Shown here one piece after another: positions 1,483 through 34,138 of a stretch of 34,138 nt of DNA; position 1 is the stretch's first letter, and each line of letters opens with the position of its first letter. The DNA is from Chiloscyllium plagiosum (Eukaryota). The stretch is taken from contig NC_057754.1 of NCBI RefSeq assembly GCF_004010195.1, positions 4,905,609 through 4,939,746 on the forward strand, written 5' to 3'. Position numbers and translations under genes: made by a program. The notes beneath the pieces are model-generated. The model ran no database searches and was not told the DNA's origin. It saw nothing but the letters and a program-made list of their open reading frames with translations.

Positions 1483-1585
1483 CAGTTCTGAAGAAGTGTC
1501 ACTGGACCCAAAATGTTAACACTGCTTTGTCTCCACAGATGCTGCCAGGCCTGTTGAGTTTTTCCAGCAATTTCTGTTTCTGTTG
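1483..1585 (+). mobile_element. Penelope-like terminal (pLTR) fragment with decayed hammerhead motif
   Basis: gtt-CTGAAGA-a-gtgtc actg gaccc-aaaa-tgtt-aac, followed by the conserved ctccacagatgctgcca..ccagcaatttctgttt tail shared with the copies at 19038 and 24010. Confidence 0.75.
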
Positions 1586-2173
1586 AATTGTATTCATAAA
1601 TGGCTTAAACTTTAACAATGCACAGTACAATACTTGAGATAGTTTAAAATGCACAGGACATAAAAATTAACATAAATTTTAAGTTTTGCTGTAACTGCAG
1701 ACTCCAAAGAAATCTTCAGAGGTTAGAAATAGGATAGTTTATACTGGTCCATTCTTAGGTGAAGGAGAATACTGTCTTTTTCCTCATTGCTTTCAGCAAA
1801 TTATGAAGCAACTTCATTTTTCATGATCGGCAATACAGTAATTGCTTTTCCACTTCTTAAGATTGAATATTTCAATGTTTTAACTAAACACTTTAATCAG
1901 ATAATCCTGTATGAAATTCTGGTTCTGTAAAGCCTTTCAGATGTGACAAGTTTTTGGACAAAACTGCATTGAGCATGGCCAGAAACATTTGATTTAAAGC
2001 TCTTAATGCCACCAGAGGGGCCACTCAGAGGATCTCTACATCAAGTCCTGTCCATGATAGGCTGAATGATCCCATGCAGTGCAGCAGTTGGGTGATTTTG
2101 AGCGCCAGATTCTGCTGCTGATTACTGTTCATTGACCCCTGTTGCAAAGTATGTCTATACTAATGATAATAAG

Positions 2174-2736
2174 GAGGTGCTGGTGTTGGACTGGGGTGGA
2201 CAAAGTAAAAAAAAAATCACAGAACACTAGGTTGTAGTCCAACAGGTTTATTTGGAAGTACTAGCTTTCAGAGCACTGCTCCTTAATCAGGTAGCTGTGG
2301 AGCAGGATCATAAGACACAGAATTTATAGCAAAAAATGACAGTGTCATGCAACTGAAACAATATATTGAACAAACCTAGATTGCTGTTAAGTCTTTCATC
2401 TTTTAGAATGGGTTGCAGGTTTTGGTTCATTAATATGTAAATCCCAGAACTTCTTTTAAGTCACATTCTCAAGATAACTTAAGATAACAAAAAAAATCTC
2501 AGCTCATAATTAATTAAAGGTGTGCGGTTAGAGTCTGTCTGTATCCCATTCTTGAGTCAGACTGGTTCTGTTTCCAAAGTAGGAATTTATAAAATGTTAA
2601 TGGATTGACTACCTGCAGATATGTGCTTTTTGAGCAAAATAGAATGTGTCTGCAAATACAATTTATAAATTCTTACTTTGGAAGTAGAACAAGCCTGACT
2701 CAAGTTTGGGATACGTACAGACTCTAACCTCACACC
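2174..2736 (-). mobile_element. Non-autonomous Penelope-like element with hammerhead motif and internal 75-bp inverted repeat
   Basis: Same terminus as the 6906, 7653 and 16378 elements (ggtgttggactggggt..aatcac..caacaggtttatttggaag). Minus-strand motif at 2259-2293: tac-CTGATTA-a-ggagc agt gctct-GAAA-gcta-gta. Inverted arms at 2519-2593 and 2662-2736. Confidence 0.75.
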
Positions 2737-2739
2737 AAT

Positions 2740-2908
2740 TCACCCTCACTTGCACATCTTTGGATTGTGGGAGGAAACCGGAGCAACCCCAAGGAGACAT
2801 GGGGAGAATGTGCAAACTCCATACAGACAGTCACCCGAGGCTGGAATCTAACCTGGGTCTCTGATGCCGTGAGGCAGCGGTGCTAACCACTGTGCCACCG
2901 TGCTGCCC
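2740..2908 (-). mobile_element. HE1-type V-SINE (tRNA-derived), 5' part
   Basis: Minus strand gggcagcacggtggcacagtggttagc (A box), ggttagattcc (B-box-like) and V-domain ggagtttgcacattctcccc..ccggtttcctcccacaatccaaagatgtgc. Confidence 0.88.
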
Positions 2909-4330
2909 TATCTTGAACAAGATGATATAGAAGATGAGCAAAACAAGGATGGAGTACAACTGAAATTCAAAAGCTATATATTTGAAGAAGGTGATGGATA
3001 CACATGAGCTTTAGACATCTACGCAGTATCTATTTCAGGAGGAGCCCAGTGAAGAGTTTAGTGGAGAGGAGGAGGTAGTATCTTGCAATTCAACTTCTCT
3101 TGAAGAAATACTTATAATGCAAAATCATCCATGAATGGAGCAGAGGGTGAAGATGATGAAAATCCAGCAAGCAGCAATGATTGGAATTGAAATTTGTGAA
3201 GAATGACATTCAGGGACATGGCTGCAAGAAGAAAATGGACAAGAGATGAAGGTAGGATGATATAGCATACTTAGAAAAGATAGAGTAGATGATAGTAAGG
3301 AAGACTTTGCATGTGAAAGTACCTAATATGACACCATCTTCAGTGGATTGGAGGAGCTGCGAATGACACTGGAGTAAGAAATGGACTTTGAAAATTTCAT
3401 TGATGCTTATCACAAAATCCAAACAATACATGAAGAAGAGAATATTGACGTTGGTACTACAGTGGAGGCTGGTGCAATTGCAACATTTAAAAGGCACCTG
3501 GATGAGTATACGAATAGGAAGGGTTTAGAGGGATGTAGGGCAAGTGCTGGTACATGGGACTAGAATAATTTACAAGATCTGGATGGCATGAATGAGTTGG
3601 ACTGAAGGGTCTGTTTCCATGCTGTATATCTCTATGACTCTCAGGCAGCTGGGTCCTCAGTTTGAGCAACTGTATTTCAAACTTCTCCATCTTTCCATTG
3701 CATATGAGACATATCAAGAAGACAGTGACAAATAATATCACCCATTTGTGACTGATCTGTTACAGATTTTTTTTAATATACGGGCATGTGCATATTTTGA
3801 AAATGCTAGAATTCTTGGATTCTGGTTGTATGGATACAAGTTCAGCTTCATGGAAGTTACAGTACTGTATATGAATGCACTTGATATACAGAACATGAAC
3901 ATGGTTTGATTTTTATCCCTTCTCCAAGATTATAATCTGTGTTATTTTCTTTCAAATTTTCCAAAGTCTGTCACCTTTTTGTATTTTTGGATCTAGCTGC
4001 TGATGAAGGATATGCATATTTATTAGAATTCTCTGGCCAAAGTGCTTCCTTCACAACCCCAGAATCGAGTTACAGTGTTGAAATGGAATGGATCATGAAA
4101 TGCTGTGGAATTCAAAATGTGTATATTTTCCATTTCCATTGCAAATGAGGATGTCCTGTTATGGAGGAATCCTTTTCTGAGTTTAATGCTGCAGAACACT
4201 AACCTGAAGATAGACTTTTACATTGTAATATAGGCACAATTTATTGTACAGTACTTCAAAGTACAAAGTTCATACAAATGTATTATATTTTCTAATGATT
4301 AGAAATAAAGCTTCACTTATACTACAAAAA
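2909..4330 (+). pseudogene. NEK1: NEK1 processed pseudogene (C-terminal coding region plus probable 3'UTR), interrupted by a CR1 fragment
   Basis: Manual translation gives LEQDDIEDEQNKDG..IFEEGD..HEL*TSTQYLFQEEPSEEFSGEEE..NGAEGEDDENPASS..EE*HS..YDTIFSGLEELRMTLE*EMDFENFIDAYHKIQTIHEEENIDVGTTV [CR1 3461-3641] RQLGPQFEQLYFKLLHLSIAYETYQEDSDK* (stop 3733-3735). This is collinear with the recalled human NEK1 tail (..[129 protein letters not shown]). It has stops, frameshifts and no introns. AATAAA at 4304-4309 is followed by an A5 remnant at 4326-4330. Confidence 0.88.
3461..3641 (+). mobile_element. CR1 (HER1-like) 3' end inserted in the NEK1 retrocopy
   Basis: VEAGAIATFKRHLDEYTNRKG end of ORF2 plus 3'UTR ending ctctatgactct; closely similar to 16060-16232. 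Confidence 0.9.
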
Positions 4331-5285
4331 TATAAGCTGTCAAAAACACCTCAACCATGAAACTCCTTGATGGAGATGGCACCAATCCAATTTCTGCTAG
4401 AGGTTGAGTGAGGTGTGGATTGAGAATTGGTTGTGCCAGAATTCAGTTTTATTAAACAGGGCCTTTTAAAAAATATCTGGTGGATGTGGTTGTGGATTTG
4501 TTGGAATTTTGCCTCACCTGCCTCTGAAATTTCCTGGGAATGAAGAGTTCATTAGTTCTGTTTATGCTCAGCAGGGTTTTGAATTTAAACCAGAATTCTG
4601 TTCAACCAGGTTTCTGCCCTGTTTACAACTTCAAATTCTGAACCTGTGGTAGGAGTGTTGTGTGCACTTTATGAATGCTTCATATGCCTGACAAATAACT
4701 TGTATATGAAAGAAAAACAACTTTTCTTAGAGAGCCTGAAGTAGTTCCTTTTTAAGGGTCACTGATTAGGCTTGTCAACATTGAATTACACAGCACTTAC
4801 AGCACAGAAATAGGCCATTTGCCACCCTTTAAACTCCACATGGGGCTTTCTCACTCTTGTTCATCTCATCCAGTGAGCAAAACCTTCTATTCGTTTCTCC
4901 TTAAGTTTCCCCTTAAATGCATTTAATTCTTGATATATTCCCCTGCCTTCCAAAATAATGCAGGGTGCATGGTTAGCATGCACAGAATATATTTTCTCCT
5001 TTTGTACATGAAATTTGCAGTTGCGGGCATTTGATAGGGTGAGGGTGTGGTGGTCTGCACAACTGTTACAGAGCTTGCTTTGCATTTTTGAGTAGTTGTC
5101 TGGTAGTTACAAGCACGAATGTTTGGCACCTATTTAAAGGCCCACCAGCAAACTACATCATACATAAGTAGGATGTCATTTAACAAAAGAAGCGTTTTAT
5201 GGGATAATGCAAGAAGTGTTATTTAGATTGAACATTTTCTCAGCAAGAACAAGTTTTACAGTATTGTTTCTGAAACTTTTAACAG

Positions 5286-5380
5286 GAGTCATGAAGAAGG
5301 GTTATACCCGAAACAGTGACTTCTCCACCTCCTGATGCAGCCTGGCTTGCTGTGTTCTTCCAGTCTCCTGCTTTTCTGTT
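5286..5380 (+). mobile_element. Penelope-like pLTR fragment with hammerhead motif
   Basis: agtc-ATGAAGA-a-gggt tat accc-GAAA-cagt-gact, then ctcctgatgcagcctggcttgctgtgttcttccag; same family as 22485-22613. Confidence 0.75.
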
Positions 5381-5614
5381 GTAAATTTTTAACAAGCAAT
5401 TTACTTGTAGTGGCTGAAGATGTAGCTGATGGGTTTGTGTGACCCTCCTGTCTACACTTACATTTGGAGATGTATGTCTTTTGGTAATGCTCTTGTATGA
5501 ACAGAAACCCAGTTCTTCTTCATGGAGGTGATATGAATTGCTGTTGCGCCACTTTATGAATGGAATCCAAAGAAAATGGAAATTTGGGGTTGTGACATAG
5601 GGAATGTTATCTAA

Positions 5615-5760
5615 ATCATTTCATTCTGGATGTTGGTGCCTCTGGTTAGGCCATCAACCAACACCTAGTGCTAATGTCCTTAAGAAGATGGTGGTGAGCA
5701 GTCCATTTGGTGTAGGTAGCCCAATGGTGCTGTTAGGAAGGGGACTTCAGAATTTAGACC
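5615..5760 (-). mobile_element. Decayed 3' end of a CR1/L2-group LINE
   Basis: aagatggtggtgagc..gtccatttggtgtaggta..gtgctgttaggaagg motif, similar to 26530-26585 and antisense to 28900-29150 and 30700-30930. Confidence 0.55.
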
Positions 5761-5869
5761 GTCAGGAAAGGTTTTCACAGATTCATAGTGTGAAATCCGT
5801 GCAAGAGATGTTATCACCTTTCCGAGTTCTGATACTGTTGTACCTGAATTTAACTGTTTCATTGATGTA

Positions 5870-6319
5870 AGTGGTTAGGAGGGCATACTTGGGGATATGA
5901 TCAACATGATACTCCCCAAGCAGGTGGTCTACTCCCAGCTTTGAAATGGAAGGCAAGCCCCAGGTGGACAGAGAAGCACTTCATTAATACCCTCAAGGCC
6001 TCACAGGCGAATTGTGGCATTCCCACAGACACCTCATTGGCCAAGACCATCTAAAGTGAAGGAGGAGCATTCTGGAAGAGCACTTTCTGACTTACCGTCA
6101 GGGAGAAGTGGAAGCCAGGCAAAAACAGTGTAAGGAGCACGCTTCCACATTACTACCCCATCCACCCCTTCCCATGACCACCTTCTGTCCCAAGTGTAAC
6201 AGAGCCTGCAGTAGCTGCATCGGTCTGTACAATCACCTGTGGACACACCCTCTTAGTGGAAGAGAGTCATCCTCATCTATGAGGGACTGCTGCTGCTGCT
6301 GTTGATGATGATGATGATG
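5870..6319 (+). mobile_element. RTE-clade LINE 3' end
   Basis: Remnants LPKQVVYSQL*NGRQAPGGQR, TLKAS, CGIPTDT and CPKCNRACSSCIGLYNHLWTH (C-terminal C2H2 motif typical of RTE ORFs), ending in a (ctg)n(gat)n microsatellite tail. Confidence 0.85.
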
Positions 6320-6905
6320 CTTGGAGAGGGTAATAGTGTACCAGACGGATATAAAACAAAATTGAGTAGATTTGGAAGCTGATGATCAAAATATATTAAA
6401 TGACATCATACTGCAATTGCATAATGCTCCAAACTAACTATATCGGGTTTGCCATTCACTGAAATATTAAAATGCTGGAATGCAGCAGAGAGATCCTAAG
6501 CAGCTGCCAAATGTCTGAGCCTCTCACCACAAAGAGAGCCTAAAAAGATGGTGTCGTTATTGTTTTAAAGGATAAAGCTGTGATTTTAAATTAGGTACCT
6601 GATGGTGAATGGTAGGATAAAAGTAAAACTGGAACTTGACTTCAAAGTAAACCTTGCCATTAGGATGAGACACAGGTCGAACTTCATATTGGATACTATT
6701 GGATTGACCAGTTCTGTTCCTCAGCACAAGACAAATCCAACTCAAAGGGCAAATTTGAAAATATATATTTGCTTTTTGGCTGACATCCTGGAACAGCATT
6801 TAACCCCATGTTCTATTTCGGCAAGCATACTATCCAGGTAACCAGGCATAATTGTCTGCATTTTCACTTTGAGCTCTTATCCGTTTGCTACCTTGATTTG
6901 CCTTG

Positions 6906-7103
6906 ATTTGGAGATGCTGATGTTGGACTGGGGTGTACAATGTTAAAAATCACACAACACCAGGTTAGAGTACAACAGGGTTATTTGGAAGCACCAGCTT
7001 TCGGAGCTCTGCTCCTTCACCTGATGAAGGAGCAGCGCTCCGAAAATTAGTGCTTCCAAATAAACCTGTTGGACTATAACCTGGTCTTGTGTAATTTTTA
7101 GCT
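6906..7103. mobile_element. Palindromic non-autonomous Penelope-like mini-element with hammerhead core and 13-bp TSD
   Basis: TSD ttgatttgccttg at 6893-6905 and 7104-7116. Inverted arms at ~6945-7019 and ~7025-7099. Plus-strand motif cac-CTGATGA-a-ggagc agc gctcc-GAAA-atta-gtg at 7018-7052. Confidence 0.85.
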
Positions 7104-7652
7104 TTGATTTGCCTTGCGCCTGAAACCCTTCACCATTTGGCTGTTACTGCTGTCATTTACCATGTGTTCTTTTCTTTTAATCACTTCACATTGGCACAAT
7201 CTTCAGTCATTGTGTTTTTGAACTCTGGAAATCTACTCCAAACACACTTATTCTTGTTAATTTTCTCCTGCCTCTTCAATCTTCTCCTTTTACTCCTGTT
7301 CACTGTCCCATTTTCATACTGTTGCATTACGTGTAAGTCCTGTATAACTATAAGTTGCTATGCTTTGGATTATATGTGCAATTATGTGAGATCTTGCTAT
7401 GTAGACAGTTGAATGGTTTGCACTATAGATATATACCCAATGACTCGTTAGAAGTTTTGAAATGTAAACTGTTGAAAAATACACAATGCACAAATTTAAT
7501 TTCTGCAACTATGCAGACATTTTATACCTGTTGAAAATCAGGCTCTTTTCCTTTCACTTGTGATGAAGTTAAATTGTTCAAATAACTTGTTTTTCTGTAG
7601 ACAAACTAAAATGCAGTTATACAGCATGCCAAGACATAGCCCTTTGGTACAA

Positions 7653-7830
7653 AATTAAAAATCACACAACACCAGGTTATAGTCCAACAGGTTTAATTGG
7701 AAGCACACTAGCTTTCGGAACGATGTTCCTTCATCAGGTAATAGTGGAGGGCTTGATCGTAACACAGAATTTATAGCAAACATTTACAGTGTGATGTAAC
7801 TGAAATTATACATTAAATAGTTGATTGATT
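7653..7830 (-). mobile_element. Non-autonomous Penelope-like mini-element with 13-bp TSD
   Basis: TSD ccctttggtacaa at 7640-7652 and 7831-7843; homologous to 2210-2370. Confidence 0.85.
7706..7740 (-). ncRNA. Minimal type I hammerhead ribozyme motif, intact core
   Basis: Minus strand UAC-CUGAUGA-A-GGAAC AUC GUUCC-GAAA-GCUA-GUG. Stem I is UAC/GUG, stem II is 5 bp and stem III is the palindrome AGCU. Confidence 0.75.
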
Positions 7831-8206: not shown

Positions 8207-8295
8207 GAGCTGAAGTGTTTGAAAAGCACAGCCAGTCAGGCAGCAACCGTGGAGCAGGAGAGTCGATGTTTTGGGCATAAGCCCTTCATCAGGAG
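8207..8295 (-). mobile_element. Penelope-like pLTR fragment with hammerhead motif (CpG-decayed)
   Basis: Minus strand tc-CTGATGA-a-gggc ttat gccc-aaaa-catc-ga..ctcctgctcc; same family as 21421 and 33925. Confidence 0.75.
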
Positions 8296-8300
8296 GGCAA

Positions 8301-8644
8301 GGGAAAGCTGGTGGCTCAGTGGTTAGCACTGCTTCCTCACAGCACGATGGACTGAAGTTCAGTTCCAGCTTCGGGGGACTGTCTGTGTGGGGTTTACATG
8401 TTCTCTCTGTGTCTGCAATGGTTTCCTCCAGTTTCTCCAGTTTCCTCCCACAGTCGAAAGATACGCAATTTAGGTAGGTTGGCTATGCTACATTGCCCAT
8501 TGGGTCCAGGGATTTGTATGCTAGGTGGATTAGCCATGGGAAATGCAGGGTTACAGGGATAGGGTAGGGTGATGGGTCTGGTGGGATACTCTTTGGAGGG
8601 GCTGAATGACCTGCTTCCACACTGTAGGGATTCTATGATACTCT
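8301..8644 (+). mobile_element. HE1-type V-SINE, near full length
   Basis: A box ggtggctcagtggttagc, V-domain, and a CR1-like tail ending cttccacactgtagggattctatga. Confidence 0.88.
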
Positions 8645-10275: not shown

Positions 10276-10279
10276 CATT

Positions 10280-14685: not shown

Positions 14686-14735
14686 CAGACAGCTGGTATC
14701 TAGCCTAAACCTCAACTTGAAAAAATATCATGAAG

Positions 14736-16232
14736 TTACTTTTTGTCATTTATGTAAATGATTTGGATGTAAACATAGGAGGTATAGTTAGTAAGTTTGC
14801 AGATAACACCAAAATTGGAGGTGTAGTGTACAGCGAAGAAGGTTACCTCAGATGGGCCAATGAGATCTTGATTAGATGGGCCAATGAGGAATGGCACATG
14901 GAGTTTAATTTAGATAAATGGGAGGTGCTGCATTTTGGGAAACCAAATCTTAGCAGGACTTGTAAACTTAATGATAAAGTCCTAGGGAGTGTTGCTGAAC
15001 AAAGAGATCTTGGAGTGCAGGTTCATACCTCCTTGAAAGTAGAGTCGTAGATAGATAGGATAGTGAAGAAGTTTGGTATGCTTTTCTTTATTGGTCAGAG
15101 TATTGAGTATAGGAGTTGAGAGGTCATGTCCCGGCTGTGCAGGACATTGGTTAGGCCACTTTTGGAATATTGCATGCAGTTCTGATCTCCTTCCTATCAG
15201 AAGGATGTTGTGAAACTTGAAAAGGTTCAGAAAAGATTTACAAAGATGTTGCCAGGGTTGGAGGATTTGAGCTATAGGGAGAGGCTGAATAGGCTGGGGC
15301 TATTTTCCCTGGAGCGTCAGATGCTGAGGGATGACCTTATAGAGGTTTATAAAATCATGAGGGGCATGAATAAGATAAAAAGACAAGGTTCTGAATGTGG
15401 TTTGCTCACTGAGCTGGAAGGTTCATTTGCAGATGTTTAGTCACCCTGCTAGTTAACGTTGTGTCCTTCTTTATCTGCATGTAAGGATACTAGTATATGG
15501 ACATCAACTAGCTACAAAACGACGTGACCCTCACTAGTATCCTTACATACAGATACATACTAGGACAAGCCAAACAGAGACACACACAAGAATTCCTAGA
15601 AGCATGGCATTCCAACTGGAACTCTATCAACAAACACATCCAATTAGACCCCCATCTACCACCCCCTGAGAAAAAGAGCAGTAAATGACATCACCACAGG
15701 AAATGACATCACGGAAAATGACATCACCAACCCAAAGAAAACCAAACATATAAATAGAAAGCAGGAATTATCAGCAGTGCTTCGCCCGGAGGCCCACTGC
15801 AGATGTTACCTAGCAGGGTGACAAAACGTCTGGAAATGAACCTTCCAGCTCAGCGAGCAAACCTACGTCTAAAATTCAACCTGAGCTACAAATCTTCTCA
15901 AAACTTGCTAAATAGACAAGATCTTTTCCCTGGGGTGGGGGAGTCCAGAACTATAGGGCATAGGTTTAGGCTTAGAGGGGAAAGATATAAAAGATACTTA
16001 AGGTGCAACGTTTTCAAACAGAGGGTGGTGTGTGTGTGGAATGGGCTGACAGAGGAAGTGGTGGAGGCTAGTACAATTGCAACATTTAAAAGGATGTGTA
16101 TATGAATAGGAAGGCTTTGGCGGAATATAGGCCAGGTGCTGGAAAGTGGGACAAGATTGGGTTGGGATATCTGGTTGGCATGGACAAGTTGGACCGGAGG
16201 GTCTGTTGCCGTGCTGTACATATCTATGACTC
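14736..16232 (+). mobile_element. 5'-truncated CR1 (HER1-like) RT plus 3'UTR, split by a Penelope insertion
   Basis: LFVIYVNDLDVNIGGIVSKFADNTKIGG, WHMEFNLDKWEVLHFG, LVRPLLEYCMQF, LEKVQKRFTKMLPGL..DLIEVYKIMRG, then QDLFPGVGESRTIGHRFRLRG and a ctatgactct tail. Confidence 0.93.
15388..15908 (+). mobile_element. Penelope-like element 3' end (GIY-YIG C-terminus plus pLTR) with inverted 5' pLTR piece
   Basis: TSD taaa(a/t)agacaag at 15376-15387 and 15909-15920. HQLATKRRDP and ILGQAKQRHTQEFLEAWHSNWNSINKHIQLDP. Hammerhead-like cca-CTGCAGA-t-gttacc tagcag ggtgac-aaaa-cgtc-tgg at 15794-15833. 15397-15457 is the reverse complement of 15805-15866. Confidence 0.88.
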
Positions 16233-16377
16233 TGTGTCTCTAAGTCTGTCTGTTCTTGGAGGCTTATTTGCTCTCATTAAGTAGTAGGTGACTGACAGCC
16301 TCAAATCTTCATTGTGAGTTTTGCCAAGGAACCTAAATTTATATAGCTATTGCAGTATTGAATCATAGAATCCCTAT

Positions 16378-16554
16378 GTTAAAAATTACACACCAGGTTA
16401 TTCTCCAACAGGTTTAATTCACCTGATTCTTCGACAATCACCTGATGAAGGAGCGTCGCTCCGAAAGCTAGTGTGCTTCCAATTAAACCTATAACCTGGT
16501 GTTGTGTGATTTTTAATTTTGTACACCCCAGTCCAACACCGGCATCTCCAAATC
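16378..16554 (+). mobile_element. Non-autonomous Penelope-like mini-element with 12-bp TSD
   Basis: TSD tagaatccctat at 16366-16377 and 16555-16566. Partial inverted terminus at 16378-16419, and the full terminus ends ccagtccaacaccggcatctccaaatc. Confidence 0.87.
16439..16473 (+). ncRNA. Minimal type I hammerhead ribozyme motif, intact core, sense to the host gene
   Basis: CAC-CUGAUGA-A-GGAGC GUC GCUCC-GAAA-GCUA-GUG. Stem I is CAC/GUG, stem II is 5 bp, stem III is the palindrome AGCU, with predicted cleavage after CUA (16470). Confidence 0.8.
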
Positions 16555-17468
16555 TAGAATCCCTATAGTATGGAAGCAGGCCATTTGGCTCATCGAGTCC
16601 ACACTGCCCCTCAGAAGAGCATTCCACCCAGAACCACACCCACACTCCTGCACCTCTGCATTTCCCATTGCTAATCCACCTAGCCTATCCATCTCTGGAT
16701 GTTATGGGCAATTTAGTACGGCCAATGCATCTAACCTGCACACCTTTGTATTATGGGAAGAAACCGGAGTACCTGGAGGAAACCCATGCAGAGAATGTGC
16801 AAACTACACACAGATAGTCGCCCAAAGGTTGAATCGAACCAGGGTCCCTGGCGCTGTGAGGCAGCAGTGATAACCATTCAGCTGTCCCATTTGAATACTG
16901 AGCAATGAAAATGTTTCGTACCTTCAGAAAAGTTATTGGCAAAAGTAACCTCTAGAGAATTAAATCAATAATTAAATAAATAGTAAGAAAACAAAAATGT
17001 TGAAGATTTCTAACCTGTAGTAGCAGTGGACTGTATTGTTTATAATTAAACCATTTTGGAATAAAAAAGTATCAGAGTTGGAGGGAGACTCAATGTATGT
17101 TGCCTTTCCTGAAATTTTTAGGATCAACCATTTCTACCAGCAATAATTGCTTTAAAAATATGCTGAGAAGTGTGGGAGAGTCAGTAGTGCAGAAGTGCAC
17201 TTTTCTTTGGCAGTGTTGAGTGATTTGTAGTAACTTATCCACCTAAAAGCCGTTGAATGTAAAGTGAGACAAAGGCAATTATACTGTTGCTTTTGAGTAT
17301 TCCACAATGGACTGTGTCATCTTACTTTTGAATGTAGAATTATTTCATAGCACCCATCTCAACACCGTGTTTTCTGTTACAGCACATACCCAATCATTTC
17401 TATCTAAAGCAAGTAGTAAGAATTTAGTGATTATTTCTGATCAATTTTAAATAGTATTGTGATTATGA

Positions 17469-17868
17469 TGCCTAAACATGGGAGATTCCCAGTACAAGAT
17501 ACGTTATTTCCCCATTGGTAATTTATCAAAGATATTTATGTGACTTCTTCTCATATTCCTGGGCTCTTCCAAATCACTTGATGGGTGGGAGCAAAGAAAT
17601 GGTATTAATTGGATAGCTTTGCCAAAGAACCTGCAGCAGTGCAGTGGATCACATGGTCTCCAGTTGCCTAAACATGGGAGATTCCCAGTACAAGATACTG
17701 TTATTTCCCTGTTTAGACCATTGGTAGTTTAACAAAGATATTTATGTGGCTTCTTCTCATATTCCTGGGCTATTCCAAATCAGTTGGTGGGTGGGAGCAA
17801 AGAAATGGTATTAATTGGATAACTTTGCCAAAGGACCTGCAGCATTGCAGTGGGTCAAATTGTCTCCA
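17469..17868. repeat. Local tandem duplication, two copies of ~200 bp
   Basis: Units 17469-17664 and 17665-17868 both start tgcctaaacatgggagattcccagtacaagatac and end gtctcca; roughly 90% identical by eye with small indels. Confidence 0.95.
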
Positions 17869-19037
17869 TCTGCATTGCACATTGCTGTTATTCTTCGACT
17901 TTCTGAGCACTAGATGTCTATTGCATACAAGCACGGATGCGCACAGTAAAATCCTTCACACAGCAAATGAGCAAGGACATCAAATGGATTTCAGGGCAAG
18001 TGATCAGATTTTATTGAGGGGTGACTGTTGGCCAGTGCTCGAACGGAACGCCTTACTTCCAACCATCACTGGATGAGTAATCCAAAGGCCAAGTCCAATT
18101 CAATGCTAAACTGTCATGTAAGATGGTCTGCTTCTCAGCCCAGTGGAATCTTAGTTCCTGTTAGCTTCCTGCTTTGTTCAACCATCCATATAAAAAAAAC
18201 AACCTTCTGCCTGTAATATGAGACTCGCTCAGCAAGCTCTGCCCTGTCTTTTATTGAGCCAAGCCCTTTGGCAAACAGGTGTGTGTTCATCACCATTCCA
18301 AATTGCAACTGACATTGCACTTGTTCCAACTAATTAGATTTTTGCTTCTGTAAGCAGCATTGTCATACACCATAAATGATGAAACATAGTTGACTACTAA
18401 ATTGTTTCAAAAACTTTACATTGCATCAGCAAAAGTCTGTAGAAATAGGATGGCAAAGCCTCTACTGTTCCCTTGACAGTTGTGTGGTGAATTTAGTCTT
18501 TTGTTCAAACTTCTTGTTGTGTCTCATGTTGTTGTTAATGGCAAATGTCTGACATGGCAAGGAACTTGTTTTATATTGACTTGGTGTAGCAAAATGGCTT
18601 ATACTGAGAGTCTAATTTTTTGTCCAGTTATCTGAAAGCACTGATTCATTCTAGAGATGTACTTTTGTCGCTGCTACCTGTTCTCTTGTTCCTTGCCCAA
18701 ATAAACCCTGTCTGTTGAGCAAATGTGTATGTAGTGACAGTGTCAGCAGGATATTTGATTGTGGATGACATCACATCTGAGCACAACCTTGTCTTCACCT
18801 TTTATTCATATGGAGCTATATTACAGTCAGGTTTTGGCAGATAGTGCAGTGGTCCTGAAGACACGTTTACTGTTCCTGAAGCTGTTGTGCTAGAGATCAT
18901 CTGGCTCAGTTCAAGCCACAATGCTGGTCTTTGTGTCTTAGTGCTTTGCTGGGTGGTAACTTAGCATCAGGAAGGCTCATTACTGTTTATGACTTGTTAG
19001 AGTTTTTTCTATAGCTAAGAGAACCAAAGTTATTGTT

Positions 19038-19140
19038 TAGTAGAAGGGTCACTGGACTTGAAATGTTAGTTCTGCTTTCTTTCTAAAGATGCTGCCAGAC
19101 CTGTTGAGAATCTCCAGCAATTTCTGTTTTTTGTTTTAGA
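19038..19140 (+). mobile_element. Penelope-like pLTR fragment (decayed hammerhead)
   Basis: agaagggtcactggacttgaaatgttagttctgctttct..gatgctgccagacctgttgag; same family as 1483. Confidence 0.72.
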
Positions 19141-19811: not shown

Positions 19812-19899
19812 TTGGGTATATGAATAGGAAGGGTTTGGGGGGATATGGGTCAGGTGCTGACAGGTTGGACTAGACTGGGTTGCAATATCTGGTCGGCAT
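19812..19899 (+). mobile_element. CR1 3' fragment truncated by a Penelope insertion
   Basis: gggtatatgaataggaagggtttggggggatatgggtcaggtgctg..atctggtcggcatg, matching 16097-16181. Confidence 0.85.
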
Positions 19900-20186
19900 G
19901 TAGTCTAGGTAGCTGTGGGAGTCGGTCGGTTTATAGTAAATGTCCATGTTGATTCGGTCGCCCGAGATAGAAATGGAAAGGTCTAGGAAGGGGAGGGAGG
20001 AGTCTGAGACGGTCCAGGTGAATTTGAGGTCGGGGTGGAAGGTGTTGGCAAAGTGGATGAACTGTTCAACCTCCTCGTGGGAGCATGAGGCAGCGCCGAT
20101 ACAGTCATCGATATAGCGGAGGAAAAGGTGGTGCCAGTGTAGCTGCGGAAGATGGACTGTTCCACATATCCTACGAAGAGGCACAT
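19898..20186 (-). mobile_element. Penelope-like RT fragment (little decayed)
   Basis: CLFVGYVEQSIFRSYTGT / HLFLRYIDDCIGAASCSHEEVEQFIHFANTFHPDLKFTWTVSDSSLPFLDLSISISGDRINMDIYYKPTDSHSYLDY, with the RYIDD catalytic motif and the LPFLD and YKPT motifs of PLE RTs. Confidence 0.92.
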
Positions 20187-20196
20187 ATCCTACGAA

Positions 20197-22613
20197 CCCT
20201 AGCTATGCCTGCCTCTTTGTCGACTACATTGAACAGCCCTTCTTCAATAACTACACAGGTACTGTGCCCCAACTCTTCCGCTGTTACATCAATGACTGTT
20301 GAAACAGTTCAACGACTTCGCCCAAAACTTACACCCAGCCCTTAAATTCTCTTGGTCTGTCTTGGACACCTCCCTCCCCTTCCTTGACCTCTCTATTTCC
20401 ATCTCCAGCGATAGTCTCTAGATGGACCTTTAGTATAAACCCACAGACTCTCATAACTACCAGGACTATACCTCCTCCCAGCCAGTATCCTGCAATAACT
20501 CCATTCCCAATATCTCCACCTCCTCCACATCTGCTCGGATGAGGAGACATTCCACTCTCAAGCATGCCAGATGTCCACCTATTTTGAACAATGCGTTTTT
20601 CCCCACTCTGTCATCCAGACAGTCCTCCAGCGCATCTCCTCCATTCCCCTCTCCAAATGCAATAAAGACAGGGTTCCCCTTGTCCTCATCTACCACCCCA
20701 CCAGTCTCTGCATCCAATGTATTATCCTTAAACATTTCTGCCAACACTAATTAGACTCCACCACCAAGAACATCTTCCCCTCCTACCCTTCTCTACCTTC
20801 TGCAAGGATCTTTCCCTTTGCCAATCCTTGGTTTGCGCCACTCTCCCCACGAATCCCCCTGAACCCCCCAGGTACCTTCCCCTGCAACCGTGAAAGATGC
20901 AAAACCTGCTGGCACGCCATCCCCCCTCACTTTCATCCAGGGCCCCAAACAGTCCTTCTAGTTGAGACAGAGGTTGACCTACCTCTTCTCCAACCTAGTT
21001 TACTGTAACCGGTGCTCTCGATGTGGTCTTCTCTACATCGGTGAGACCAAACGTAAACTCATGGCACGTTTCGCCGGGCCACAGGGACTGACCTGACCTC
21101 CCAGTCACCGCCCATTTAATTCCCCTTCCCACTCCCTTTCCGACAGGCCATTCTTGACGTCCTCCATTGCCACAGCGAATCACACAGCACATTGGAAGAA
21201 CAACACCTCATCTTCCGCCTGGGCAGCCTACAGTCCGGAGGACTCAATGTTGAGTTCTCCAATTTCAAATATGCTCCCTTCCCATGAAACCGACTCCCTT
21301 TCCAGCCCTCCCCTCCCCCTCCCTTCCATTCTTTTGATCGACCCTTCCACCTATCAACCGGATTCATTCCTCCCATCGCACAACTAGGTCGTACTCTCCA
21401 CCTGTGTTCACCTGTCCCTAGGAGAAAGTGAGAACTGCAGATGCTGGAGATTGGAGATGAAAAGTGTGGTGCTGTAAAAACTGCAGGTTAGGCAGCGTCT
21501 GAGGAGCAGGAGAGTTGACATTTCGGGCATAAACCCTTCATTGGGAATGTGGGGTCTGGGGGGAAGTTGAGAGATAAATAGGAGGGTAGGGGTGATTGGG
21601 GAGGGTGGGTTAGAGCTGGGAAGGCAATAGGTTGATGCAAGTCGGGAGTGATCGTGATAGATCAGAGGGGAGGGTGGAGTGGATAGGTGGGAAGGAAGTT
21701 GGACAATTCAAGAGAGTGGTGCCGAGCTGGAGGGTTGGATCTGGGATGAGGTGGGGTGAGGGGAGGTTAAGAAATTAGTGAAATCGATGTTTATGCCATA
21801 TAGTTGAAGGGTCCAAAGGCGGAAGATGAGGTGTTCTTCCTTCAGTCATTAGGAGGCTTGATTTGGCAGTGGAGGCGGCCCGGGTCTTGCATGTCCTTGG
21901 CAGAGTGGAAGGGGAAGTTGAAGTGGTCGGCCACGGGGTGGTGTGATTGTTTGGTGCGTGCATTCCAGAGATGTTCCCAGAAATGTTCTGCGAGTTGGCG
22001 TCCTGTCTCCCTAACGTAGAGGAGACTACATCGAGAACAACAGACGCAGTTTGGATGTGCAGGAAAGTCTCTGCCGGATGTGAAAAGGTCCTTTGGGGCC
22101 TTGGACGGAGGTGAATGGGTAGGTGTAGCTGCCGGTTTTACAGCTCTTGCGGTGGCAAGGAAAAATGCCAGGTGTGAAGGGTGATTTGGTGAGGGGCGTG
22201 GACCTAACAAGGGAGTCATGGAGGGAAAGGTCTCTGTGGAATGCAGATGGGAGTGGGGAGGGAAATATCCCTTTGGTGGGGTCTGATTATAGGTGGCAGA
22301 AATGGTGGAGGATAATGCGCTGTATCTGGAAATTAGTCGGGTGGAAGGTGAGCACCAGGGGAATTCTATCCCTACTAGGGTTCTGTTCACAGGTTCTATC
22401 ACCTATCCCTACCTCACCACCCTGCCCCCTCCCCACCCAACTAACCCCCCCGACCACTATCTGCAGCTCCCCTTACACTCACCCCCAGTCCAGTAGAAGG
22501 GTTGCCCCAAACCGTTGACTTCTGCACCTCCTGATGTTGCCCGGCTTGCTGTGTTCTTCCAACCTCCTGTTTGTCTACCTTGGACCAACATCTGAAGTTT
22601 GTTTTTGTCTCTG
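20197..22613 (+). mobile_element. Penelope-like element (RT, GIY-YIG, pLTR), decayed, split by a nested PLE
   Basis: PSYACLFVDYIEQ..LPFLDLSISISSD..YKPTDSHNYQDY; NLVYCNRCSRCGLLYIGETKRKLMARFA (GIY-YIG); LEEQHLIFRLGSLQ. The 3' UTR resumes at 22399 and ends in a pLTR with a decayed hammerhead (22487-22520). Confidence 0.9.
21421..22398 (-). mobile_element. Penelope-like element 3' half nested in another PLE, 13-bp TSD
   Basis: TSD tcacct(g/a)tcccta at 21408-21420 and 22399-22411. Minus strand CVCCSRCSLLYVRETGRQLAEHFWEHL..HHPVADHFN. pLTR with decayed hammerhead at 21513-21546. Confidence 0.9.
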
Positions 22614-23970: not shown

Positions 23971-24009
23971 CCAAGAGGGAACTGACAAAATGACAAAACC
24001 ATTTTTAAA

Positions 24010-24140
24010 AAAAAAGCAAAGAATTGCAAATGTCTGAAATCAAAAATAAAACAGAAGTTGCTGGAAAAACTCAGGTTTGGCAGCATCTGTGGAGAGAAAG
24101 CAAAGTTAAAGTTTCGGGTCCAGTGACGCTTCTTCAGAAT
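24010..24140 (-). mobile_element. Penelope-like pLTR fragment with hammerhead motif
   Basis: Minus strand att-CTGAAGA-a-gcgtc actg gaccc-GAAA-cttt-aac..ctccacagatgctgccaaacctgagtttttccagc. Confidence 0.78.
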
Positions 24141-28414: not shown

Positions 28415-28775
28415 TGCTGTTGTGTTCAGTTCTGGGATCTGCAACTTCAGGACAGATGTGAAGTCTTTGGAGAAATTTCAGAAAAGCATTATGAGATTGG
28501 TACCAAGGATAAAGATAGATTGGAAAACTGGGGCTGATTTTCTTGGAGAAAAGAAGCAAATGTTGAGAGGTTATTTGTTTGAAGGTTCTGACCGGAGTAG
28601 GTAAATGGGTCATATTGACTGAAAACCAGAGGGCACAATTTTAAGGTGATTGACAAATTAACAAAAGACAAACTTAAGTTTTTTTAGATGGAGTGAGTAG
28701 TTAACATTTGGAATGCATTACCTGAGAGTATAGTGGAGGCGATTTCAATTGAAACTTTCTACAGGGAATTTGGAA
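28415..28775 (+). mobile_element. Decayed CR1 3' part
   Basis: CVQFW..FRTDVKSLEKFQKSIMRLVP..TRGHNFKV..WNALPESIVEA. Confidence 0.8.
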
Positions 28776-28794
28776 AAGTCCAAATTTTGGTTTT

Positions 28795-29160
28795 GGGCTG
28801 ATAAGTGGAAGGTAACGTTACTTAGGGGTTACAATTGACCAAAACCTGAACTGGACAGTCCGTACAAACGCTGTGGCTACAATCACTGGAAGGACAAGGG
28901 TAGTGAATGCATTGGAGCACCACCACATGCAAGTTTCTCCCAAAGCCACACAACATGCTGACTTGGAAATATATCACTGTTCTTTCTCAGTTGATGTTGA
29001 AAATCTTAGAACTCCCTCTCTAATAGCACTAGTGGGTGTACGTACATCATGTGGACTGCAGCAGCTCATAGAGCAATTCTCAGGAGTGATTAGGGATGGA
29101 CAGTGAATGCTACCCGTAGCCAGAAATGCCTACATCCTGTGAATAAATGAATAAAATAAA
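28795..29160 (+). mobile_element. Decayed CR1/L2-group LINE with A-rich tail
   Basis: LGVTIDQNLNW remnant, caccacatgcaagtttctcccaaagccaca..gacttggaaatatatc and a catcctgtgaataaatgaataaaa tail. Confidence 0.7.
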
Positions 29161-30010
29161 AGATAAGCTCCCAAGGTGATAAGATTTACAAACTCTGAAA
29201 TAGAACTAATCAAGTTGCTGTTGCAGAGAGTTGTCATGAATATGTTCAGCTGATGGTTACTGCATAAAAGAGACCAATCTGTGATCCTGTATAATCAGTT
29301 CTGTTACCACCTGTAATACAGCACCACCTGTTCTATTTGCTGCTGTGTAAAATATATATTTGTTTTTATTTTATTCCTATTCTTCTTGTTCATGTTGTGC
29401 AGTGTATTAAATTAATCATTCAGTAACACACAAATTTGATTGTGCTTGCATTATGGAAATTCTGTTCCAGCCATAATTTCAATTCTAGCAGAATATTTAC
29501 TCGTAACTAACTGTCTGATACCTTGTTGCTAATTGGCATTATTCACTATAGTAACGGAAGACCCAGGTTTATGTTTTAGTTTAGTGCTGCTTGTGATTTT
29601 TTTAAAAAGTCTGTTTTGCCACATCTGGTTTCTCATCGATCTTGGAACGTTGAGGTTTCTTAAATATTATCTAATTGATAACACTTTGCTCTGCCAATCA
29701 GCTTTTGCACTATTCGGTTTATTACTTTGAAAATGGAGGTGAGAGAGCTAGGTACCAAAAATATTAGAATAAAAACTGAAAATATCAGCATTTGAAATAG
29801 AGAAGATGGGTAATGTTTCAGCTGAGACCTTTCCCTAACTGAGTTCTGAGGGAAGGTCCGCACTCAAAATGTTAACCTGCAATTTCTCTTTCAAGTGCTG
29901 ATGGTACTGCAACATAATTTAGAATATTATTTTCCTGTTTAAATTGTGGTGCTCCCTTACTTTTTATCCTTTTAAGTGCTTAATGGTGAGCATTTCCTTC
30001 TTTGTTGCAG

Positions 30011-30162
30011 ATGAACGTGAAGCGGTGCAGAAGAAAACGTTCACCAAATGGGTAAATTCACACTTAGCAAGAGTGACCTCCCGTATCACGGACTTGTATA
30101 CGGACCTGAGGGATGGGCGAATGCTGATTCGGTTGCTGGAGGTGCTGTCGGGTGAGCAGCTG
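30011..30162 (+). CDS. SPTBN2: Beta-spectrin internal coding exon (CH1 actin-binding domain), most like non-erythrocytic beta-III spectrin
   Basis: Polypyrimidine tract and acceptor tttccttctttgttgcag|ATGAACG (phase 1); donor CTG|gtcagt; 152 nt. Translates (D)[50 protein letters not shown], the beta-spectrin CH1 start. The family call is near certain. The paralog call is tentative (about 0.6; SPTBN1 and SPTB not excluded) and rests on VT, IRLL and EQL residues as recalled for fish/amphibian sptbn2. Confidence 0.93.
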
Positions 30163-30544
30163 GTCAGTATAAGCCTTTTGTGCTTTTTGTGGCAACCATC
30201 AGAACAATATCATTGTAGCTTTAGGTCAGCAATACTCACCAGCTTACACTTAGCACAGGCACAAGCTCAATCAGTATCTTGTTTGACAGACAATCAAGTA
30301 TGCTCAACACAGTAGAAGCTTAGTGAGTTGACTTGAGTTACAGGTCCATGAATGATCCACGAATTTTGATCATATTGTCAACAGCTGACCAGCCACTTCC
30401 CTGAAGGAAGAATTAAAGCTGCAACACCAGTTGGTTGTTTCTTTCACTTGCTGTATGGATATTGAGATAACTTTACCTGATTTTAGTGGACGGAAAAATG
30501 AAACATCTATTTGTTTAACGTATCTTCAAGATAGCCAACAACAA

Positions 30545-30937
30545 TAAAGCAAGTTGATACCATTCCAAGGCACCCTGTTCACCACATTAAATATTTAATC
30601 CCTTCACTGCCAATACACAGTGGCAATTATATGAGCCAACTACAAGATCATGCAGCCTCCTTCAACAGCATCTTACAAACCTGTGACTCTACCTCCTAGA
30701 AGGACAAGAGAATATCATCATTGGCAAGTTCCCCTCCAAGTCAAACACCATCCTGACTTGGAAATATGTCCCTGCTCCTTCATGTTGCTGGGTCAATTTG
30801 CTAGAACTCTGTTTCAAACAGCATTGTGGGGTGAATTCTTACACTTCAAAGTCTGCAAATCACCTAACACCTTCTCAAGGGCAGCAAATGCTGGCTTTGC
30901 CAGTGATACCTACATCCTATGAATAAATTAAAAAAAA
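30545..30937 (+). mobile_element. Decayed CR1/L2-group LINE 3' end (same family as 28795)
   Basis: caagttcccctccaagtcaaacaccatcctgacttggaaatatgtc..tacatcctatgaataaattaaaaaaaa. Confidence 0.72.
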
Positions 30938-31064
30938 ACTTAATTCATTATCAATTAATTTGCTTTGAAATGTATTCACTGTTGTTATTTACTCAAATAT
31001 GAATGTCACCTAGAGCATAGTTGCATAACAAGCATTTAAAATAATGATCCATGGTCTGTTCCTT

Positions 31065-31260
31065 TATTTGGTGCTGAATAGATTATTGGTCAGGGCACAA
31101 GTGGAATTCCCTATTTCTCTTCAAGCAGTGCCTTGGGTTCTTTCTAATCTTGCCATCACATGTTAATGGAGTCTTGGTTTATGGTTTCACCTTGAAGGTG
31201 ACCCGATGCTAGTACCTATCAGTACTGCACTGGAGTGTCAGCCTGGATTGTGCTTGCAAA
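31065..31260 (-). mobile_element. Deu-domain SINE fragment
   Basis: attggtcagggcac..ctcttcaagcagtgccttggg..cagtactgcactggagtgtcagcctggattgtg, antisense to the 26392 element. Confidence 0.62.
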
Positions 31261-31650
31261 TGTAATCAATGGTAAAGAGTTTGGAGCCTACTATATCCAG
31301 ATGAACATTTAAATCAACATCTGATTGACTGCTCAGGTAGTTTAGTATGTTAAAATCTGACCTAGCAAATCACACAATGACATTTTTCATTCATAAGAAT
31401 ATAGAAAGGAAAGGAAGAGAAGGTCATACCTTGAGTTGGCTCAGCAGTTTAATAAGATCATGGCTGAACTCAACGTCAAATTCACCTTCCAGCCCTGTCC
31501 CCATTTACCTCAATTCTGTTGACAGTTCAAATATCCGTGTATATTGTCACACGGTGGAGTTAAAGACCAGCAAATGAGTTACTCTACATCATTAGTATAA
31601 TTCCTCCCTTGCCCATTGTTTGAAAATTCCAGACCAGCTTTAACAGGGAA

Positions 31651-31711
31651 GACCAGAATTGCACGCAATATTCCAACAGTGGCCTAACCAATGTCCTGTA
31701 TAGCCGCAACA
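31651..31711 (-). mobile_element. Short CR1 fragment
   Basis: Minus strand LRLYRTLVRPLLEYCVQFWS, matching 15130-15188. Confidence 0.85.
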
Positions 31712-32519
31712 AATTTCTGGCTGTTAACAGCTGCTCCTTTTTTGAGGTATTTTAGGTGCTGGAGGTGATTTCCTCGAATTCCAGGAGCAGCAATTACTGT
31801 TTTATATGCTGTTGCATTGTTTTGGAACTTTGGGAAAAAAAGTCAAAACAATAGCGGTTTTAAAAAGGAGAAGAACAGACAAAGGAAGCACATGGTGAGG
31901 TCATTGCAGGAGAGAGAAAGAGAGAAAGAAACTGACACTGCCGTTGCTGTTTGAATTCATGTATCGCTGGACATCGGAGTGCATCTGGGAAAATTAACAA
32001 ACAGTGAAATTCACAGTGTCACATATAAATTGGTTATTCAATGTCATAATGGGTTATTGTTGGGATGCTTTGCTAAACTGATGTAGTCACTGAGGACTAA
32101 CCATTATTATCTATTTCATTCATACCTTGTACTTAAACAAAAATCAGCCAGGAGTCCTCCCAGGAATGGTGACCATTATGCTGTTGTAATCTCACTGTCT
32201 ACAGTGACTGATAAACACAGAAGGATCATTTATTTTATTGAATTCTGTAGACCAGGAGGATTTCAGGTTTGATTCCTGATCTGGAGCAAGTGGGCTTCTT
32301 GGTTGTTTATCTTGGCTAAGGAGGAGAAATTTCTATTAGGCATGTTGCTTCTGATTGTTGTCTAGTGACCCACAGTAGAAAGTGTCAAGATGTCAGTAAA
32401 ACACCAGTCCCTACTGTAGTCATAAATTGTATGGAAAGTTGCATTACACGTTCAGAAATGAAGAATGGGCAAGGATCACAGAATTGGACCCCAGCACCTT
32501 CGGATAGGAGGTGTGCATA

Positions 32520-33045
32520 TTACGAATGTTAAGTCATGCTTCAGGTATTGTGCACATTTGTGGTCTCTGTTTCATGAAAATGATACAGAAGAGTTATGAA
32601 GTTGCAAAAATATGTATAAGGATGACACTAATGAATTGTGAATATGAGGAAAAATTAGAACAGGTTTACTGTTTTCTGTAGAAAGCAGATGATGAGGACT
32701 GACCTAATAAGTAGGTCTTTAAAATTAAAAATATGTTTAATAGTGTGAATGTTCCCCTTGTGGAGGGGTGGGGGAGAAACCAGAATTAGAGGCCAAAAAT
32801 GCAAGGCAGTCATGATTAAATCCAACAGAGAATTCAGGAGAAAGGTCTTTAGAGAATGTGGAACTTGCTACGACAGGGAGCAAATAACAAAGACACATAT
32901 AATGGGGAGCTGCATAACCACACTGAAGAAATTATTAAAAGGACATGCTGATGAACTGTGAAGAGGGTTGTGAAAAAGCTCATCTTGAACATATTCACTC
33001 AGGTGAGCCTGTTGGCTGAATCATCTGACTCTGTGCTGCAAATTT
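32520..33045 (+). mobile_element. Highly decayed CR1 3' part
   Basis: YCAHLWS, YEEKLEQV, TRIRGQK..SNREFRRK remnants and a ttggctgaatcatctgactctgtgctg tail. Confidence 0.65.
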
Positions 33046-33924
33046 TATGTGAAAAAAAGAATGAAAACAGGCCTTATTGGCAGGAGACTAAATTGCATAT
33101 CTTCTGTGCCACTTTCCATGCTTCCAGGTGGATTCATCTCTCAACAATCCGGTTCAACCTTAATTTCCTGTTTACTGCTAGATGGAATCTTTTATTTAAC
33201 CCATCAACACTGCCATTAATTTCATCAGTTTAAATTGAGAGCTCATTGTGGGAGTTCAGGAACTAATATCCTCCCACGCTGCTGTTTAATGTGTTAAATC
33301 TGCAGCTGCTGCCAAGCTGAATATCTCATTATGATCTATTTGCCTAAACCAAGTAAAACTTTGGTCTTGTCTTCTGTACAAATCATACTTCCAAGATCTT
33401 CTGCCATGTAACACATTATGCTATCTAACATAAATTTATTTTCTTGGTTACTTTATCAAGGTGTATTCCTATTGAATAGATTGAAATCTAGCCAGAGAGT
33501 TTTATTTTACAAACATATCTAATGCATTTATTGCTAGCATCCCTAATTTGTTTGCAGACATCTTGACCTGCATTTCTAATGTTTTTGCATGATTTATTTT
33601 CCTCCCAGTTATTTTCGTTTTTTATTTATTGATTAATCTTTCTTCTCTTCACCATGTTTTATACTGGGGAGGCGTTGCTCAGACTTGGACGGGTTGGCTT
33701 TCTATATACTATGTTTGGAGAATTCAGCTTTTGTGATTGTTGACTAACCTGGCACACTGTTTCCACTGCAGTACATTGAGAATATAAGGTAGTACAGCTG
33801 TTTCCTTTGAATGGCTGACCCTGTATTTCAAAGGTTACTGGTATTTTGGAAGCATTTTAAGTGAGCCACAAGGAATGTGTCAGTAGTTGTAATCCATGCC
33901 CAAAGATGAAGGATTTAAAAGATG

Positions 33925-34138
33925 GAAATGTGTTGCTGGAAAAGCGCAGCAGGTCAAGCAGCATCTAGGGAACAGGAGAATCGACGTTTCGGGCATTAGC
34001 CCTTCTTCAGGAATGAGGAAAGTTGGTCCAGCAGGCTAAGATAAAAGATAGGGAGGAGGGACTTGGGGGAGGGGTGTCGGAAATGTGATAGGTGGAAAGA
34101 GGTCAAGGTGAGGGTGATAGGTCAGACTGGGGGGGGGG
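33925..34138 (-). mobile_element. Young Penelope-like pLTR (continues off the window)
   Basis: CpG-retaining terminus aaatgtgttgctggaaaagcgcagcaggtcaagcagcatc..; same family as 8207 and 21421. Confidence 0.85.
33980..34013 (-). ncRNA. Minimal type I hammerhead ribozyme motif, intact core
   Basis: Minus strand UUC-CUGAAGA-A-GGGC UAAU GCCC-GAAA-CGUC-GAU, with palindromic ACGU stem III, a GUC cleavage triplet and a weak stem I. Confidence 0.78.

Follow-up and report, generated by a model that had tools for sequence, protein, structure and literature searches.

A 34,138-nt stretch of the Chiloscyllium plagiosum genome (RefSeq assembly GCF_004010195.1, contig NC_057754.1, positions 4,905,609 to 4,939,746; hereafter the window) carries hammerhead-like motifs at 13 places. 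These motifs are probably minimal type I hammerhead ribozymes lying in the pseudo-long terminal repeats (pLTRs) of five families of Penelope-like elements (PLEs), and the short copies of the elements, abundant throughout this shark genome, are likely cDNAs of the front end of RNA that the ribozyme had left uncut. The motif itself is already known from PLEs. The useful addition made here is that many short copies begin just before the motif, and not at its predicted cut site.

An earlier note on the window had listed the 13 sites and assigned them to at least four PLE lineages. The hammerhead architecture is indeed recognisable at all 13, but a strict descriptor of the minimal core (CUGANGA...GAAA..UH with helices I and II) is passed by only four, with core position C3 at 7021+, 7737-, 16442+ and 34010-; in 300 first-order Markov resamples of the window the mean number of strict matches was 0.003 (maximum 1). 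Profile hidden Markov models, whose seeds included window copies, recover all 13 together with two further remnants without an intact 5′ core and one tail-only piece. By stem II and 3′ tail the motifs fall into five families: A (stem II GGAGC; C3 at 2290-, 7021+, 7737- and 16442+), B (GGGC; 8292-, 21542- and 34010-), C (GGGUC; 1488+, 19036+ and 24137-), D (GGGU; 5291+ and 22490+) and E (GUUACC; 15797+). The Rfam scan that had been proposed as a check found no hammerhead in the window at either threshold, which is expected because the motifs lack helix III.

Copies for mapping 5′ ends were chosen by their 3′ tail alone, the genome holding 72,776 exact family B tails and 24,851 exact family A tails. 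Mapped loci are L049-L066 and L129-L308, C3 is position 0, and six B and two A copies with N at the junction were dropped. Family B junctions (n=232) form a cliff, with 76 at -6 to -1 and two at -30 to -13; per nucleotide there are 0.11 at -30 to -13, 1.2 at -12 to -7, 12.7 at -6 to -1 and 5.3 at 0 to +5, followed by a declining tail. Family A (n=130) has 47 junctions at -12 to -1 (3.9 per nt) and three at -30 to -13 (0.17 per nt). Copies reaching beyond -95 number 31 of 232 in B and 24 of 130 in A. In both families the cliff lies 3–11 nt before the core. Its peak in B is the A of TCATTC, ∼31 nt below TTTATCT, and its mode in A is -8, 30 nt below TATAAAT; by their consensus motifs, we take these elements to be an initiator with a TATA box in A and with a weaker TATA-like box in B. 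One family B subfamily has a different upstream sequence.

Target duplications of at least 7 nt flank 21 of 33 non-inverted B stubs and 7 of 13 non-inverted A stubs (shuffled means 0.8 and 0.3), and the 3′ ends of A and B copies gather in two clusters ∼35–40 nt apart, at +81 to +96 and +116 to +128, the +81 bin partly reflecting subfamily divergence from the reference. Duplications and clustered 3′ ends together indicate that the stubs are insertion products, not later deletions. A splice acceptor was considered as the cause of the A and B cliffs and rejected, there being no AG before the cliff, and the upstream flanks being heterogeneous or inverted. The bases at the junctions are suggestive of a copied cap. 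At ten unique-flank start-site loci the base before the junction is G in seven and A in three (the filter admitted only A or G), and of seven start-site copies with an abutting duplication four have one extra base, always G, and three have none; this small signal would fit cap copying or general terminal addition alike. A literature search on shark Penelope hammerheads, pLTR start sites and strong-stop or template-switch products, with most subscription papers outside its reach, did not turn up the 5′ cliff.

Junctions at the predicted cut site (+28) are scarce by comparison. Genome-wide junction patterns, which required a mismatched flank, gave 2,856 filtered junctions at -4 (a pattern for one B subfamily), 51 at +28 and 89 at a control position, +34, with perfect palindromes counting twice and with ∼14%, ∼9% and ∼12% of random flanks, respectively, estimated to pass the filters. 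Nine of 30 cut-site loci proved to be indels in intact copies, not true junctions, and ∼13 rows of the +34 control were by eye internal deletions. After correction, -4 junctions are ∼50-fold more frequent than +28 junctions, which are not above the +34 control. Only 2 of the 130 family A junctions fall at +27 to +30. Among the matches listed, 57 palindromic joins were sorted by eye (from 100 of 142 rows); nine have both arms at the cut and 16 are centred on the neighbouring ACGT. Rfam was also run on 20 loci whose junctions lie at the cut site or close to it, taken through a filter that admitted no junction ending in U; neither U6 nor any other RNA was recovered. In several unique-flank junctions close to the cut site of B (L339, L343, L346, L348, L364 and L368, at 1500-1515) a terminal CAG is followed by G; inverted arms of very short length, or joins resembling splicing, might account for them.

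RNA was taken from one poly(A) single-cell run with the same species label, of which ∼2% of reads were used. Family A pLTR reads carry poly(A) at +57 (337 reads) and +60 (414 reads), or 350 and 442 reads when placed on locus L118. This poly(A) site lies 12–15 nt after ATTAAA, in DNA that is not A-rich, and ∼30 nt past the predicted cut site, and poly(A)+ reads span the uncut ribozyme motif. The reads may stem from any copy, including host transcripts that end in a pLTR.

From the junction positions, the duplications and the family A poly(A) site we infer the following course. Transcription would start at the cliff, at an initiator-like A ∼30 nt below the TATA box in A or the weaker TATA-like box in B. 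Reverse transcription would begin internally, ∼90 or 125 nt downstream, and cDNA synthesis would pass through the uncut ribozyme and run off the capped end. Joined to the target, the run-off cDNA would yield a stub; joined to a second arm, it would yield a head-to-head palindrome. Since copies keep the whole ribozyme at their 5′ ends, their templates appear to have been uncut. Cutting by the ribozyme would be slow, would depend on a dimer or on protein and would affect a minority of element RNAs, and cleaved RNA may make up a few percent of templates. The copies in the window would be inert.

Several observations weigh against this course. The sampled copies are drawn mostly from a single contig's first 10 Mb, and the two arms of one insertion are not independent. 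The cliff map covers families A, B, D and E, long references for C being lacking; in D 13 of 29 junctions fall at -6 to -1, measured on four references only, and E has no cliff (3 of 29 at -6 to -1). The G:A ratio scored by eye before unique-flank junctions, 24:11 at -4, is not clearly different from 13:10 at the +34 control. Family B has 11 of 232 junctions at +27 to +30, 2.75 per nt with ∼0.8 nearby, of which eight are inverted, and of the 57 palindromic joins listed around the cut site CG microhomology leaves 26 ambiguous. The single-cell reads show no pile-up of ends anywhere, in a library that is not a 5′-end one.

An extension of the run-off course, which we offer tentatively and judge to have perhaps a modest chance of being right, is suggested by the start and the poly(A) site falling on either side of the ribozyme. 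The Neptune-type pLTR would then be a retroviral-like U3-R-U5 unit, with transcription starting at the front edge of the ribozyme and poly(A) added ∼30 nt past the cut, so that each end of the mRNA would carry a 65-nt repeat containing the whole hammerhead. Stubs would be strong-stop-like cDNAs that failed to jump, and a ribozyme dimer would clasp the two ends. If this were true, the dimer would aid strand transfer, or would strip cap and tail to leave a circle, itself a route to full pLTR-ORF-pLTR copies (ORF, open reading frame).

The cliff might instead arise at the DNA level, with the GIY-YIG endonuclease, or end-joining at ATT/AATT microhomology, trimming or joining cDNA at the front edge of the ribozyme, in which case it would mark no transcription start. 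The endonuclease is reported to prefer ATT in the element's own pLTR (PMC11167929, in the part accessible), the family B junction falls between C and ATT, and perfect AATT-centred palindromes are frequent among the matches listed. We nevertheless find this unlikely, given that family A junctions also occur in ACAACCAC copies without ATT, that the profile is one-sided (near zero upstream, with a tail downstream), that TATAAAT stands 30 nt upstream in family A and that all four single extra bases are G. Somewhat less probable still is a reading that builds on the earlier note, in which the ribozymes cleave routinely as dimers and genomic copies derive for the most part from RNA that had been cut or circularised. 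All five families preserve core and pairing, the small family B excess at +27 to +30 points the same way, long copies could derive from circles and so leave no junction, and the accessible text of PMC4209133 both observed low dimer cleavage and proposed this route. Against these stand the cut-site deficit, the excess of ACGT-centred over both-arm cut-site palindromes, the near absence of family A junctions at the cut and the poly(A)+ reads covering the uncut motif. As for dimeric cleavage by the window's own copies, these are mostly decayed and include no close direct tandem, and the 5′ ends of copies show the whole ribozyme retained, so that this part of the claim is not supported. Nearest-neighbour folding makes the dimeric hammerhead less stable than a pair of free monomers, by 1.7–9.4 kcal/mol, for 7 of 7 copies, which fits the weak (PMC4209133) or protein-assisted (PMC11167929) activity reported.

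It is very improbable that the short copies are a separate self-amplifying non-autonomous family, SINE-like (short interspersed element-like) or retrozyme-like, even with their very high copy number, fixed 5′ start and target duplications, and with pLTR-derived retrozymes, including one chondrichthyan, reported in the part seen of bioRxiv 10.64898/2026.07.22.740005. The copies are dispersed or head-to-head, not in tandem arrays; the stubs lack the upstream TATA region; and sequence and two-site tail are common to stubs and long ORF-bearing copies. The chance that the motifs were co-opted to regulate host pre-mRNA, as a special tie to a spectrin gene would have it, seems to us negligible. A host exon at 30010..30165+ (approximate bounds) encodes the start of a calponin-homology domain, of a gene that is presumably beta-spectrin, and two intact copies lie on its strand. 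These two sense copies, 9.4 kb apart, have non-complementary helix III sequences (AAUU and AGCU), however, and 9 of the 13 motifs are broken and both orientations are present. The density of motifs, which the earlier note had called high, is 2–3 times background: 58 ten-kb stretches at round coordinates (558,593 non-N bases) held 20 strict matches (36 per Mb) and 116 core-spanning remnants (2.1 per 10 kb), and the window's 34 kb hold 15 remnants, or 4.4 per 10 kb, an enrichment of ∼3-fold for strict matches and ∼2-fold for remnants. Yet 7 of the 58 stretches reach the same level, and the bootstrap p of 0.013 is anti-conservative since the window was picked for this feature. The enrichment is modest.

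In structure the motifs agree with minimal hammerheads throughout. The extra nucleotide that separates position 9 from 10.1 is present (A after A9, U in family E), the first stem II pair is most commonly G-C (G10.1-C11.1) in all five families, and helix III is a loopless palindrome, AGCU in A and ACGU in B to E as previously claimed, except that the strict-passing copy at 7021 has AAUU. Covariation had been claimed for all three stems. It holds between families, where both partners change at 1.1-1.3, at pairs 2-4 of stem II and at 15.2-16.2, in a comparison of five lineages only, of which B to D are related. Within families it is limited to pair 1.3 of family E (10 C-G, 15 U-A, 2 C-A and 3 other; n=30), and as this variation spans two subfamilies it counts as one event. 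Two variants seen in the window are not family-level covariation: UAC/GUA is carried by 3 of the 135 copies of family A (Fisher p=0.7), and of the 243 distinct strict matches listed the window's copy alone has GGAAC/GUUCC. Family B has U.U at pair 1.3; in one B subfamily (L140, L158) the cut site is followed by GAAU, which completes a 4-bp stem I in place of the mismatch of most B copies.

Loss of the core through CpG-type changes had been proposed for most decayed copies. G12 is part of a CpG, and 17 of 118 copies in B and 13 of 73 in A have it mutated. The change G12>A explains 15 of 24 broken B cores, 13 of 31 broken A cores and ∼4 of 9 decayed window copies, short of so general a claim. 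Non-CpG divergence is 0.8% (B) and 4.2% (A) in the core and 3.0% (B) and 7.2% (A) in stem II. Selection on the cores after insertion was considered and is not read from these values, the core being A-rich and the rows having been chosen partly by core match.

A Penelope-like origin is supported for all five families, with the hammerheads located in pLTRs, in sense and 3′ of remnants of reverse transcriptase (RT) or GIY-YIG endonuclease. The window itself holds a PLE RT fragment (19870..20202-) that has a YIDD motif and shares 82% identity with a family B ORF, an older remnant running from RT to endonuclease with 37–54% identity to that ORF (20191..21072+) and a GIY-YIG endonuclease remnant (21842..22402-). 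Pfam gave no match for the window's RT and endonuclease fragments; the GIY-YIG and RVT_1 matches obtained are weak, below curated cut-offs. As a query, the RT fragment finds 41,007 first-look candidates in the genome, and at 19 of the 29 other loci anchored on RT a family B motif follows on the 3′ side of the RT, in sense. For family A, locus L118 has the arrangement pLTR-RT ORF-pLTR, the ATG standing ∼120 nt past the core. Remnants of the endonuclease occur 5′ of the family D motif at 5 of 12 loci and between two family C motifs at 1 of 12, and at locus L116 a GIY-YIG remnant precedes the family E motif on both arms of an inverted structure; the PLE link of C and of E rests on one locus each.

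The family B ORF has a Cys linker (CxxxxCxxC) between RT and endonuclease, and truncated copy L118 retains its start in family A. Such a linker is given for Neptune and Nematis in PMC8557442, and a comparison with it by eye suggests that families A and B may be Neptune-type. At L116 no Cys linker was seen before the GIY-YIG remnant, and no family E RT was recovered. Several arrangements of pieces may be noted. Nested PLE pieces of at least two ages and in both orientations occupy 19870-22590 of the window. At L009:1400-2850 two divergent family A pLTRs flank an older PLE ORF piece with 42–45% identity to B, which suggests capture or template switch between families. In divergent family A pairs both arms share the loop II variant in 10 of 11 cases (by eye, with GTC/GTT counted as CpG decay), so that both arms of a pair usually come from one source.

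Exact intact copies in the 3.56 Gb genome number 47,938 over five patterns (A 14,834; B 32,499; C 22; D 80; E 503), with none for reversed controls. Strict matches number ∼125,000 by extrapolation from the 20 background matches, or roughly 80,000–200,000. Intact motifs in this genome number around 100,000 in order of magnitude, and stubs, which preserve a record of the template RNA in their ends, are far more numerous.

The copies in the window itself are common repeat debris, mostly decayed insertions. In family A, the copy at 2259..2293- (G8>U) is a long pLTR copy with TATAAAT upstream, and that at 7706..7740-, also a long pLTR copy, passes the strict descriptor with GGAAC/GUUCC and UAC/GUG. 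A head-to-head palindromic insertion of the same family spans 6907..7120; its + arm (7018-7052) is the strict-passing motif with helix III AAUU, and its - arm (6907-7031) is cut inside the core. The intact copy at 16439..16473+ begins at -8 (ACAATCAC) after a G and is preceded by an inverted tail-only piece (16363-16419-). Family B is represented by a short copy beginning at stem I (8262..8295-; G12>A, helix III ACAU), a remnant with core CAAUGA ∼390 nt 3′ of the GIY-YIG remnant (21513..21545-) and a strict-passing long pLTR copy whose stem I has 2 bp and then U.U (33980..34014-). Family C remnants lie at 1485..1520+ (GUU/AAC, G12>A, helix III AUGU; the copy begins at stem I), 19036..19070+ (core heavily decayed) and 24105..24140- (all core letters kept, but helix III, ACUU, broken along with one pair of stem II). 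Those of family D are at 5287..5321+ (C3>A, helix III broken; the copy begins at stem I) and 22487..22520+ (core decayed). Family E has a long pLTR copy at 15794..15833+ (A6>C, G12>A), with TATAAATA upstream, and a second remnant at 15375..15458- that has lost its 5′ core and was absent from the earlier list. No close direct tandem was found among the window copies.

Other repeats in the window include an inverted repeat of 220 nt at 2518-2737 (arms of 79 nt, 86% complementary, with a sub-threshold Rfam MIR7533 match), probably a miniature inverted-repeat transposon, and a near-tandem duplication of ∼200 nt, 89–91% identical, at 17469-17873. Fragments of RT like those of long interspersed elements, together with SINE-like repeats, lie at 14721-16250, 8310-8635 and 16555-16876 and are common to many loci.

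The papers compared here were accessible in part, and the comparisons apply to those parts. Like the metazoan PLE hammerheads of PMC4209133, the shark motifs are type I with a short helix I, the extra nucleotide at 9/10.1, G10.1-C11.1 and a loopless palindromic 15.2-16.2, occur mostly solo or in opposite-strand pairs and fall into several families per genome. They differ in their short helix II, of 4–5 bp in families A to D, and, with the caveat that the descriptors differ, the shark counts (47,938 exact and ∼125,000 strict by extrapolation) far exceed the 4,000 reported in coelacanth and 9,000 in Xenopus. No cartilaginous fish was found in what was seen of that paper, with its supplement searched for six genus names, and Callorhinchus has 0 matches. 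The non-LTR retrozymes of bioRxiv 10.64898/2026.07.22.740005 are likewise pLTR-derived, hammerhead-bearing and non-coding, but by definition form tandem arrays holding two or more complete ribozymes, whereas those of the window are scattered or inverted.

What PLE hammerheads do is still described as unclear (PMC8557442). For the Anolis Poseidon element PAc, PMC11167929 reports that RT initiates internally at two sites, that protein assists the ribozyme and that the dominant substrate in vitro is uncut RNA. PAc and the shark elements both have two 3′ end clusters giving a 30–40 nt tail, both keep the ribozyme in inserted copies and in neither were RNA ends seen at the cut site; the ATG is in stem II in PAc and ∼120 nt 3′ of the core in family A, families A and B have the Neptune-type Cys linker unlike PAc, and the 5′ cliff was not found in the accessible account of PAc. 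The stub ends indicate that most short insertions come from uncut RNA, in agreement with one in vitro study, and they predict exact positions of start, cut and poly(A) site that simple experiments can address. A rotifer pLTR also has TATA plus initiator-like sequence (PMC3846280, PMC8557442), whereas D. virilis Penelope has a TATA-less internal promoter (PMC2377424). Insertions of endonuclease-bearing PLEs resemble those of the shark in their inverted 5′-truncated arm, palindromes at the inverted junction and optional tail (PMC3846280, PMC8557442). Head-to-head palindromes are attributed in PMC3846280 to self-priming on an antisense template, whereas shark junctions cluster at the predicted sense start, which fits the joining of run-off cDNA ends.

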